A stretch of DNA of 64,000 nt from Minisyncoccota bacterium (GTDB lineage: Bacteria; Patescibacteriota; Minisyncoccia; Phycocordibacterales; GWA1-40-21). The stretch covers positions 115,699 through 179,698 of the forward strand of contig JBAZRH010000002.1 in the NCBI GenBank assembly GCA_041663045.1, in the 5' to 3' direction. Below, one piece after another: positions 24,001 to 27,000 of the stretch. Position 1 is the first letter of the stretch, and the number at the start of each line of letters is the position of its first letter. Position numbers: made by a program.

Positions 24001-27000
24001 ATAAAAACTGTATATCGTCTATAATAAGAACATCAAATTTTTGATATTTTTCTTTGAAATGATTTATTGTGCCATTTGCAAGCGAGTTTAAATAATCATT
24101 TACGAATTTTTCGGAAGTCATATAATAAATTTTCTTTCCACCCTCCGCAGTCTTAATATGATTCCCTATTGCCTGTATAAGGTGTGTCTTGCCATGCCCA
24201 GTGCTTCCAAATATAAAAAGTGGATTGTATGTCGCCTGCTTCTTTATGATTGCTTGTGAAGCCGCGTGGGCGAGTTCGTTGAAAGGGCCGATAACGAAAC
24301 TTTCAAAAGTGTACTTTGGATTCAAATTATCGTCTCTGTTTACATAAATATCATTTAAAGGAAGAGAATTACTTTGGGGAGCCTCTTTGATGGTGTTTTT
24401 AGGCTCATCTTTAGATACCAAATACTCAATATTTCTAATATTTTCCCCGAAGGTTCTAAGATTTTTTAAAATATCCTTATGATATTTGTTTATAAGCCAG
24501 TCTTTTACAAAAACATTTGGCACAGCCAAACAAACAACCCCATCTTCCTGTTTAATAATATGTGTATCTTTAAACCACATACTAAAGTTGGCTTTCGATA
24601 GAGTGAGCTCTATTTGTGCCAACACGTTATTCCAAAGGGTTTTATTATCTGACATAAAAAATTTAACAGAGTTAATTATAAGTTGCCGCAGCTGTTTATA
24701 GAAACTCATTTTTGTTTACAAGCTGTGTATAAGCGGTGGATATATAATAAACCAAGAAAATAATTTTACATCTTTACAAAAAAGTTTTTTTGGTTTATAC
24801 TTCCCTACATGTCAGTCACATATCAACCAAAAAAGAAAAAGAGAGCGAAAGTCCATGGCTTTCTAGAAAGAAGCAGAAGTAATTATGGTAAGAGAGTTTT
24901 AAGAAAGAGAAGGCAGAAGGGTAGAAAGAAACTCACCGTTTAATCGACAATTCTGATTGTCGTCCCAGCGGAGGCTGAGAACCAATCATTATAATCTGAA
25001 AAAGGAGCTATGAAAGCTCCTTTTTAGTTGATACAATATAAAAATGTTAGCCAGAAAGTATAGAGCTACAAGGAAGGACATAGAAAATGCCATAAAAGGT
25101 GGTTTTACCGTGGATTCTGGTATTTTATATGCCAAAATCTCCAGAAAAGACACTGAAAAAGCAGGTTTTGCTATTGTTGTATCGAAAAAAGTGGAAAAGA
25201 CCTCGGTTGGCAGGCATCTTATAAAAAGGAGGGTAAGCGATGTCCTTGAGAAGAATTTATCAAAATTAGGCTCGAATTTTAAAAAGACGGTAGTATTTTT
25301 TGCAAAAAAGCAGGAGAAAGTGCCAGAATATGCGGAAATTAAAAAGGGTGTGGAGGAAATTCTGTTAAAAGTCTTTTGATATTTAGTGACAACCCCAGCA
25401 CCAAAAGTCATACGGACTTGTGCTTCGCCCATAAGGAAAGGGCTATTCGCCCACGCACTCGTCCTAGGGCGGTGCGGGGTTATGGAAAATATAGCCGCTT
25501 CGCTCGTTATTTTCCAATAAAAAACCGCGATTTCTTCACTTATCCTTCCCTTTCGGGGTTGGATAAGTGAGAAATCGCGGTTGATTGTCATTGTGCCGAT
25601 TTACTTTTCGGCCTTGGCCGTGACAATCTTCGGATCAACGAGCCGTTGCAGAGCGAGTCCCATTTCGGCGAGCTTCGCCTTCGAGGGACAGATCATGATG
25701 TGAAAATGATTTGTGTCACGGGAGGCAGTTTGGGAGCTATTAGCCATATAAACCGCACCCCAATTACCGTCATCGAGACCCATTTTTCCCATGAAAGCGT
25801 CAGCCACGAACACAGTTTCACCGAGCAGTTTTGCTTGGTCTTGGGTGGCAAGGTCTTTCCACAGCATCGGTTCACCGCTCGACCCATTCACACCCCAGAT
25901 GAGGTGGTAGCCGAGCACTTCGCCGTTTGGTCCTGTTGCTGCGCTTTTTCGCGAATCGGTCAGATAGCGCTGGTTTTTGGCTCCTACCGCTTGCGATACA
26001 TTCAGTATCACAGCTTCCAATAACCCTGCCGGGATTGGTTTAATATCCATTTTCTTCTCCTTTTCCTGTATTTTTGTTGTTTTTCAAAAGGAAAGCCACA
26101 ATAGCCTTCCCAACTCATTCGCCTACAAGTATAGCAAGTATATATTCGTCTGTCAAGCTCCCCCTAAGGGAGTGCCCTCCTTTCCTCTGTAAGCGAGCGA
26201 GACTTGTGATTTTTGAGCATTGCCGAGAACCGATATCTTTTATGTAGGCGAGCGAAGCCGAGCACTTTGAAATGTTTATCTGTCTTTAAGCGAACGAAAT
26301 CATACCCTTTCTGGAAACTTGCGAGCGCGGCTGGCGCGAGCACGAGGAATTTTTTAGCAAAAAAATATCCGTGTTCCAGAAAGGGTATGGTTGAGTGAGC
26401 GGTTAAAACATTCAAAGTGCTCGGCGAGTGAGCCGTTTGTGTATTTACCCTTTTTCGGTTAGAATCATCTTGTGATACATTTTATATTTCAAAACTTCTT
26501 TTATGCACCGCTTTACAACGGTATGATACTTCTTCTCGACTATATCCCATGGATCAATGTCGGTGTAGCTGTCATACTATTTACCTGTATTGTAAAAGTT
26601 ATTCTCTTCCCTCTTTCAAAGAAGTCTATCAAGACTCAGCTTGAGATGAAGAAAATCGAGCCAGAGCTCGCAGAAATAAAAGAGAAGTATAAAGATGACA
26701 AAAAGGTACAGGCCGAAAAGATAATGGCGATGTATAAAGAGCGAGGGATCAATCCTTTTTCCGGTATTTTACTTATGTTTCTCCAATTGCCCGTACTTAT
26801 CGCCCTCTACTATATCTTTCTCCAAGGCGGACTTCCAAATATAGATCATTCGACACTTTATTCCTTTGTAAAAGCCCCGGAAAGTGTAAGTATGATGTTT
26901 TTTGGCATAGATGTCGGTGCAAAGAGTATTATTTTTGCCCTTCTTGCAGCACTCGCACAGTTTTTCCAAATGCAACTTACAATGCCGAAGACCGTAAAGC

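Follow-up and report, generated by a model that had tools for sequence, protein, structure and literature searches.

Two long nested hairpins lie in the stretch of a Minisyncoccota bacterium genome considered here, a window of 64,000 nucleotides (GenBank assembly GCA_041663045.1, contig JBAZRH010000002.1, positions 115,699 to 179,698 of the forward strand). One (copy A) stands upstream of yidC and the other (copy B) upstream of doxX, and they raise the question of whether two hairpins with a common core mark a regulatory leader of membrane-protein genes or a piece of DNA that has moved. A preliminary description, made from the sequence alone, had leaned towards a cis-acting leader or riboswitch-like RNA at a fixed distance from a start codon, and had named mobile palindromes of the repetitive extragenic palindrome (REP) or MITE (miniature inverted-repeat transposable element) type as the alternative. 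The evidence presented below makes it reasonably probable that both copies belong to a mobile foldback repeat, a family specific to Patescibacteria and spread by strand-specific hairpin recognition. The element is small, non-coding and multi-copy, and the family is apparently undescribed in Rfam and in the literature searched.

Dispersal of the hairpin family

Scanning of the GTDB species-representative genomes with the pattern GCGAGCACGAGGAANNNNNNAGCA returned at least 120 stretches (individual loci are labelled L). A complete head, the 56-nt asymmetric apex of the hairpin, is present in at least about 100 of the listed stretches, and among these listed complete-head copies the family is specific to Patescibacteria, all of them coming from metagenome-assembled genomes (MAGs) of this group. 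The remaining listed stretches, about 20 including L106, are without the rest of the motif and belong mostly to Proteobacteria, Mycobacterium and other phyla. Host labels comprise Nomura-, Yonath-, Taylor- and Zambryskibacteria, Paceibacterota, Minisyncoccia and many MAGs entered in ENA as 'Saccharibacteria'; the last label was not trusted, since PheT of those MAGs is 55-70% identical to Nomurabacteria PheT. A pattern scan of IMG/VR gave four matches, all due to chance, and none of the four (0/4) had a match to the covariance model. This model, built from 97 copies, found 122 copies in 100 loci of ~8 kb each (up to three per 8 kb), of which about 25 were diverged and had been missed by the exact pattern. 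Neighbouring copies are arranged in tandem or back to back (L043, L024, L047), with opposite orientations in L024, L047 and L081, and several head subfamilies occur within one genome (L079). The type-A consensus reads [arm ...TTTTnnRGRG]-(A/C)-CTTG(C/G)GA-GCGC-GAC(T)G-GCGC-GAGCAC-GA-GGA-ATTTTTC-AGCA-GAAAAAT-A-TCC-GT(G/A)-[CYCYnnAAAA... arm]. An origin element or DnaA box was considered and dropped, as no match was found and the element occurs genome-wide.

Whole units recur at unrelated loci. A near-identical unit of ~112 nt, GCGAGGGATGCC...GGCTCCCGAGC, is present at unrelated loci of different species (L004, L044, L063 and L067), and a second near-identical whole unit is common to other unrelated loci, again in different species (L082, L109 and L086). 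Within these shared units the likeness ends at the base of the hairpin and the flanks are unrelated (left flanks of subfamily copies read CAGA, TCGG, TCAT and TTTG), while no target duplication was seen in the four plus three subfamily copies with definable ends. Compared with homologues that are without the element, the inserted block consists of arms and head together. The presence of identical-arm units at unrelated loci, without target duplication, thus indicates that it is the whole hairpin that moves. Arm sequence holds little information beyond about 11 head-proximal positions, and the flanks, which have a weak A bias before and a weak T bias after the hairpin, do not exceed 0.35 bits per position.

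Placement relative to genes is equally free. Among ~95 copies listed, the intergenic ones fall into four classes according to the strand of the upstream and downstream gene relative to the head, namely (-,-) with 27 copies, (+,-) with 12, (+,+) with 11 and (-,+) with 11; the distance to the next plus-strand start varies from 23 to 491 nt, and about a quarter of the listed copies are within coding sequence. Many copies in all orientations and positions, some of them inside genes, refute the leader at a fixed start-codon distance that was first proposed, by the criterion set in the preliminary description itself. The mobile-palindrome alternative is the better description, although several defining features of REPs and of classical MITEs are lacking, as discussed below.

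After removal of artefacts caused by N-terminal extension of open reading frames (ORFs), about 23 listed copies remain within long ORFs, which belong to 14 different conserved genes and carry the element in either orientation. The hosts include SecA, DNA polymerase III alpha (DnaE), UvrD/PcrA, a PGM/PMM-family mutase, MnmA, Dus, a class-V aminotransferase, PheT (five species), TsaD (four species), and Tgt-like, glycosylase-like and S-adenosylmethionine (SAM) methyltransferase genes. Pfam confirms ten in-gene hosts, with domains split around the insert, and arms plus head account for 35-46 extra residues compared with homologues that do not have the element. All in-gene copies are in frame and stop-free, and indels between orthologous in-gene copies are multiples of three, which implies that these copies are read through and not spliced. 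An intron was rejected on the constant, stop-free frame, on the inspection of four co-directional flank pairs, each of which proved to be two distinct genes (tuf/rpsJ, tpiA/pgk etc.), and on the lack of any Rfam intron match. The frame and the orientation in which the head is read change from gene to gene, and no single conserved peptide results; predicted element-encoded peptides include GSATARARGIFQQK (TsaD, PcrA) and TDIFLLK (DnaE). A protein search with five translated head frames gave only three weak matches, in a PheT C-terminus and a class-V aminotransferase, because matches so short cannot reach significance against 5.8 billion sequences.

Structure of the unit and the two copies in the window

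The RNAalifold consensus is a three-way junction in which the arms form helix P1. P2 consists of CUUG/CGAG with a 5' bulge NGAG, a variable 4-bp tip and the loop GAC(U)G, and P3 of GGA/UCC, a bulged A, 7 bp and an AGCA loop, being probably extended by CAC/GUG across a GA bulge. The modal unit measures ~100 nt; its arms, of ~21 bp, can vary freely in sequence. In a MAFFT alignment of 97 sequences, 94.7% of the cells are standard pairs (36-59% with slid partners), the covariation score reaches 0.516, with 0.153 as the highest control value, and 22 of the 31 pairs have compensatory double changes; adding the diverged copies raises the last count to 29 of 31, in an alignment that is model-fitted and favours structure. 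The earlier remark that the stems differ in sequence yet stay paired is thus borne out by strong covariation across copies. Diverged heads even swap helices that are invariant in type A while pairing is kept (GGA/UCC to GCA/UGC, CUUG/CGAG to UUUUG/CGAAAA, and CAC/GUG to UAU/GUA). The P2 tip is dispensable, being deleted in L119 and shrunk in L001 and L108; in two other genomes (L085, 2586-2663, and L035, 3802-3919) it carries a shared insert of ~30 nt, CGATTAGTAAATCGTRTCGTGAGAYAAGG, which may be a second small module nested in the element.

The two strands are not equivalent. Across 14 head-proximal arm pairs, G·T outnumbers A·C on the head-bearing strand by 50 to 14 (p = 7e-6), and by 22 to 3 in copies that are antisense to their host gene, which indicates that the element's own strand folds, independently of host transcription. 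As judged from this wobble bias, what folds is single-stranded DNA or else a transcript that runs in the direction of the element itself. When replication orientation was approximated by GC skew on the element strand, the bias was weak (60 versus 39 loci) and confounded by gene strand, and adjacent copies in opposite orientations count against a strict replication-orientation rule. The head is stop-free in five of six frames (P ~0.056 against shuffles), and most copies have four to five open frames.

In the window the covariance model finds exactly two copies, B with 103.3 bits and A with 99.8 bits, and the next best match has 16 bits. The cores of copy A (26333-26373) and copy B (56618-56658) agree at 39 of 41 bases (95%) and are preceded in both by GAGCGCG(G/A)C, so that alignment upholds this part of the preliminary description; the only differences, T to C and A to G, face each other as a single base pair of the second small hairpin. 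The core 18-mer occurs exactly twice in the window, with 0.07 occurrences expected by chance. Folding energies are -94.8 kcal/mol for copy A (z = -6.5 against shuffles) and -96.8 kcal/mol for copy B (z = -13.2). Both copies are nested: an inner unit of ~95-98 nt, with a perfect stem of ~19-22 bp and the asymmetric 56-nt head, sits in the loop region of an outer palindrome. Folding also extends the limits first given, which were too small, to ~26247-26433 for copy A and to 56543-56719, instead of 56558-56704, for copy B. Both copies do contain the stem segment TTTGAAATG that had been reported as shared with its partner; copy B has the exact partner (CATTTCAAA) and copy A one that is short by one T (CATTCAAAG). 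The parts of the two copies are as follows.

~26247..26433, plus strand: copy A, whole nested hairpin, outer palindrome and inner canonical unit (RNA fold)
26256..26277, plus strand: copy A, 5' side of outer stem, CCGAGCACTTTGAAATGTTT, pairing with 26406-26424
26298..26392, plus strand: copy A, canonical ~95-nt unit (covariance-model match 26295-26387; arm extent)
26298-26317, 26318-26373 and 26374-26392, plus strand: 5' arm, head and 3' arm of the copy A unit
26318..26373, plus strand: copy A head (RNAalifold consensus, pair counts)
~26318-26340, plus strand: copy A P2, CTTG...CGAG with bulge and apical hairpin GCGC-GGCTG-GCGC
~26341-26373, plus strand: copy A P3, CAC-GA-GGAATTTTTT-AGCA-AAAAAAT-A-TCC-GTG
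26406..26424, plus strand: copy A, 3' side of outer stem, AAAACATTCAAAGTGCTCGG
56543..56719, plus strand: copy B, whole nested hairpin with ~60 paired positions on each side (RNA fold)
56582..56679, plus strand: copy B, canonical 98-nt unit with a perfect stem of ~21-22 bp (covariance-model match 56581-56672; arm extent)
56582-56603, 56604-56658 and 56659-56679, plus strand: 5' arm, head and 3' arm of the copy B unit
56604..56658, plus strand: copy B head, the three-way junction core

The outer palindromes (arms 26256-26277 and 56546-56571) resemble the P3 half of the head (GCGAGCA...GAATTTTT) and may be remnants of earlier copies that served as insertion sites for the present ones; their likeness to the head consensus is not significant against shuffles. 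All three window occurrences of the octamer GCGAGCGA (26193-26200, 26248-26255 and 56709-56716; 0.5 expected) flank copies A and B. The matches of ~16 bits are headless intergenic hairpins (3718-3767, 48132-48184 and 54593-54640), which score on both strands, by their arms only, and are probably ordinary terminators. For the copies themselves an intrinsic terminator was set aside: a terminator scan reports no more than an outer mini-hairpin of 5 bp (26419-26433) and has no call for copy B, and the T bias of the family is weak (+28 to +30). Logan contigs L121 and L122 (SRR18595301), independent short-read assemblies of the same organism, stop within both hairpins (~26349 and ~56620). Look-ups with window proteins gave only Logan contigs that end within the hairpins, and no strain with an empty site was found among them.

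The genes on either side of each copy diverge. To the left of copy A is a hypothetical gene on the minus strand (25601-26050) and to its right the plus-strand yidC/jag, with dnaA at 23324-24709; copy B separates a minus-strand SpoU methyltransferase gene from the plus-strand doxX. From the end of the core it is 99 nt to the yidC start (GTG 26472) and 85 nt to that of doxX (ATG 56743), in agreement with the spacing noted at the outset. Comparison with 80 metagenome loci encoding YidC relatives (40-82% identity) found the element upstream of yidC in none (0/80), and the covariance model gave two weak matches in these 309 kb, both away from the yidC upstream region. A TA(G/C)AAT box stands exactly 6 nt before the yidC start in all five relatives inspected (L127, L128, L129, L131 and L133); the window has TAGAAT at 26460-26465 before GTG 26472, with TTGTGT 17 nt upstream of the box, and its likeness to the yidC relatives starts right after the end of the copy A hairpin, at 26433. 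The predicted promoters on either side of the two copies are listed here.

26437..26465, plus strand: predicted yidC promoter TTGTGT-17 nt-TAGAAT, downstream of the hairpin end (conservation in relatives; not called by the consensus scan)
26128..26156, minus strand: promoter-like site TTGACA-17-TATACT for the hypothetical gene 25601-26050, left of copy A (11/12 matches, TG before the -10)
56728..56736, plus strand: predicted doxX extended -10, TGTTATAAT, 6 nt before ATG 56743 and downstream of copy B (analogy with yidC)
56522..56529, minus strand: predicted spoU extended -10, TGTAATAT, 7 nt before GTG 56514 and outside copy B (read from sequence)

The conserved -10 box only 6 nt before the start suggests that the yidC mRNA is leaderless and transcribed from a promoter downstream of the copy A hairpin. 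By the same arrangement doxX and spoU also appear to be leaderless, the spoU start at 56514 agreeing with the 160-aa gene call. Copies A and B would accordingly occupy spacers between divergent predicted promoters, upstream of those of yidC and doxX, and no regulatory role of either copy for yidC or doxX is detectable on this placement. The -10-like boxes TAGAAT, TATAAT and TAATAT (two with an upstream TG) 6-7 nt before the yidC, doxX and spoU starts (26460-26474, 56728-56745 and 56512-56529) suggest that mRNAs without a leader are frequent in the lineage of Candidatus Paceibacterota to which the MAG of the window belongs.

Four of the five inspected relatives (L127, L129, L131 and L133) have rnpA directly upstream of yidC. 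The window instead has, next to dnaA, two minus-strand genes without Pfam domains (24989-25591 and 25601-26050), so that copy A is placed at a synteny breakpoint. A minus-strand cluster (27714-32319) with a type IV secretion system (T4SS) pilin domain and a TraG/VirD4-type P-loop ATPase, both according to Pfam, adjoins yidC-jag. Elsewhere in the window (49512-49981), behind tRNA-Arg(GCG) (49512-49584), a 196-nt unit that starts within the tRNA 3' end (49570) is repeated 2.1 times in tandem with perfect identity; the array may reflect integration or the duplication of an att site, or be an artefact of assembly. A 55-nt repeat with 78% identity (11670-11724 and 14615-14669) precedes, or stands at the start of, two large consecutive ORFs on the plus strand (11881-14583 and 14639-16393), which may have a promoter or leader region in common.

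Mobility and the competing explanations

Under the favoured reading, the family would be an interspersed, non-coding and non-autonomous foldback element of ~100 nt, the whole hairpin being the inserted unit and landing between genes in any orientation. A trans-acting enzyme would mobilise it as a single-stranded top-strand intermediate and would recognise the irregular bulged hairpins of the head, following a logic like that of IS200/IS605 ends or REP/RAYT. The arms may stay complementary by compensatory change or by hairpin-templated (quasi-palindrome) correction, the latter being an established mutational process. In-gene copies would be tolerated in frame and read through in housekeeping proteins, and the window copies would represent lineage-specific insertions between divergent promoters, each nested in an older palindrome.

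Several observations weigh against this proposal. Neither a target motif nor a conserved end sequence was found over ~99 copies, which is a poor fit to a sequence-specific transposase. No mobilising enzyme was found: two Y1 transposase queries, TnpA of IS608 and of IS200, gave no tblastn match at E below ~0.5 in 1.3 Mb of DNA of the candidate phyla radiation (CPR), which is a weak test. Close strains yielded no pair of an empty and a filled site. The use of an exact 18-base pattern for retrieval favours intact heads in the sample, and promoter placements in the window derive from conservation. A further difficulty comes from orthologous in-gene sites in PheT and TsaD, where the head is 97-98% identical while coding flanks are 49-71% and arms 38-74% identical; a purely selfish, immobile resident copy should have decayed. 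The site is empty in more distant TsaD genes, and repeated re-insertion at the same codon is unlikely given the lack of a target motif, so the persistence of the head calls for purifying selection on resident copies or else for recurrent conversion. Diverged heads, the coexistence of subfamilies in L079 and the retrieval of intact heads by the pattern are three points against a uniform host requirement. It is conceivable, though we hold it with low confidence, that the head is a functional single-strand module under nucleotide-level purifying selection at each site, in essential genes too and whatever the transcription of the host, serving either as the recognition element of an undescribed strand-specific, structure-guided mobilisation or repair system of Patescibacteria that also renews its own arms or as a single-stranded DNA (ssDNA) or RNA signal required by the host.

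The same frozen heads also support an explanation in which the element is maintained by its host and mobility is only its origin, with the head as an ssDNA or RNA recognition site for a conserved Patescibacteria protein. Such domesticated sites may act in chromosome organisation, replication or repair priming, or transcript stability, comparable to host-bound REP/BIME sites (BIMEs are mosaics built of REPs), with copies under purifying selection. Besides the conservation of the head at PheT and TsaD sites far above that of flanks and arms, the empty site in distant TsaD genes together with the missing target motif favours vertical descent over re-insertion, the reading of the head in different frames and orientations places the constraint on nucleotides and not on a peptide, and the strand-specific wobble is independent of host transcription. 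However, copies are absent from most relatives at a given locus (there being only the two matches in the 309 kb of yidC-relative loci), diverged and partly deleted heads occur, adjacent copies point in opposite directions (L024, L047, L081), one genome harbours several head subfamilies, no partner protein is known, and ascertainment bias inflates the apparent conservation; host maintenance is therefore possible but rather unlikely. An explanation by a gene for a small structured RNA, or by a retroelement with a ribozyme, in which each copy is transcribed in its own direction, with the junction as functional RNA and the roughly two-turn arms as an RNase III-type substrate, would account for the strong covariation of all helices, the conserved unpaired NGAG bulge, GA bulge, bulged A and AGCA loop, the tolerance of G·U on one strand only and the modal arm of ~21 bp. 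It is improbable in view of the flank information analysis, which found no conserved promoter in or beside the unit (at most 0.35 bits per flank position), of the absence of any Rfam match at E <= 10, all known self-cleaving ribozymes included, of junction strands that, read by eye, misfit a hammerhead core, and of the intact heads of in-gene copies antisense to the mRNA (PheT group); moreover, palindrome correction at the DNA level could equally yield the covariation of the arms. A cis-acting 5' leader or riboswitch-like RNA controlling yidC or doxX has in its favour the plus-strand position of the two window copies, each 85-99 nt ahead of a gene on that strand, and the existence of a conserved structure. 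This reading is hardly credible when copies occur in all orientations and inside ORFs, at 23-491 nt from the next start, with none of the 80 yidC relatives carrying the element upstream, no Rfam match, and a hairpin that would lie upstream of the conserved -10 box 6 nt from the yidC start.

Relation to known elements and significance

The Rfam comparison suggested in the preliminary description was carried out, and neither copy matches a known family: at the gathering threshold of Rfam 15 the sole window match is a tRNA, and at E <= 10 copy B gives only sub-threshold miRNA-hairpin noise, while weak matches near copy A (miRNA, CRISPR repeat, algC) are all outside the hairpin. Literature searches for the element sequence, the encoded peptides and palindromic, MITE or hairpin repeats of CPR bacteria found nothing relevant. 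A hammerhead-like or k-turn core was dropped, as the junction strands, read from sequence, do not fit. PARCEL, defined as tandem 25-residue coding repeats in surface proteins (PMC2996958), does not apply to copies that are single, dispersed and mostly non-coding, nor does integron attC, in which the conserved part is at the stem base and not, as here, at the apex.

In behaviour the closest analogues are the Rickettsia palindromic elements (RPEs), which are likewise interspersed palindromes of ~100-150 bp in a reduced genome, encode no transposase, and occur both between genes and in frame in unrelated housekeeping genes, where they are translated through; R. conorii has 44 RPE insertions, nearly half of them in ORFs (MITE review, PMC10969869). 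RPE families are, however, defined by likeness of the whole element and by a conserved encoded peptide, whereas here conservation is confined to the 56-nt asymmetric head, which is translated in several frames and in either orientation, with variable arms and an unrelated host clade, the comparison being made by description only. REPs, BIMEs and REPINs are also palindromes defined by structure, found in clusters and both orientations without target duplication, and REPs are presumed substrates of a trans-acting HUH enzyme that reads them as single-stranded hairpins. REPs are 20-40 nt long, extragenic by definition, and have a GTAG or CGTC 5' tag (PMC3733652). An assignment to REPs was rejected on the unit of ~100 nt, the ~23 in-frame gene copies and the absence of such a tag; in REPINs, moreover, the stem is conserved and the loop variable, the reverse of the arrangement here, in-gene copies occur here, and no RAYT or Y1 gene was found, again by the weak test described above.

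Bacterial MITEs (Correia/NEMIS, ERIC, RUP, Coxiella QMITE) are similar in being small, non-coding and multi-copy with fold-back inverted-repeat ends, and they form occasional in-frame fusions with host ORFs (PMC10969869, PMC5896051). Classical MITEs differ in having conserved terminal inverted repeats, target-site duplications and a recognisable parent insertion sequence (IS); here the termini are unconserved, none of seven copies has a duplication and no parent IS is known, and the classical MITE was rejected on the first two counts. The ends of IS200/IS605 elements and their non-autonomous derivatives (PATEs) offer strand-specific, imperfect, bulged hairpins, with two small hairpins per minimal element, and need neither terminal inverted repeats nor target duplication. 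Their insertion sites lie 3' of a fixed tetra- or pentanucleotide and their hairpins are sub-terminal, whereas here the flanks differ with no such fixed sequence 5' of the insertion, on which ground an assignment to IS200/IS605 derivatives was rejected, the hairpins are central, and the long complementary arms have no counterpart there. Palindromic repeats also invade very compact organelle genomes, including their coding regions (PMC2800124, PMC6649704), a likeness that extends to yeast mitochondrial GC clusters, sponge repetitive hairpin elements and Nematomorpha coding palindromes. These organelle repeats belong to other hosts and have no conserved asymmetric three-way-junction head.

Patescibacteria genomes are among the smallest and most gene-dense of bacterial genomes and are thought to be poor in repetitive DNA. 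The spread of this family across Paceibacteria lineages parallels that of RPEs in a second, unrelated lineage with reduced genomes. The element has practical consequences as well: it breaks short-read de Bruijn assemblies, as with the Logan contigs that end within both window hairpins, and it yields spurious ORFs, false start codons and foreign segments in phylogenetic marker proteins. For the organisms themselves, the insert adds 35-46 residues to SecA, DNA polymerase III alpha, PheT, TsaD and other proteins, and the element provides a defined probe for a single-strand recognition or mobilisation activity.

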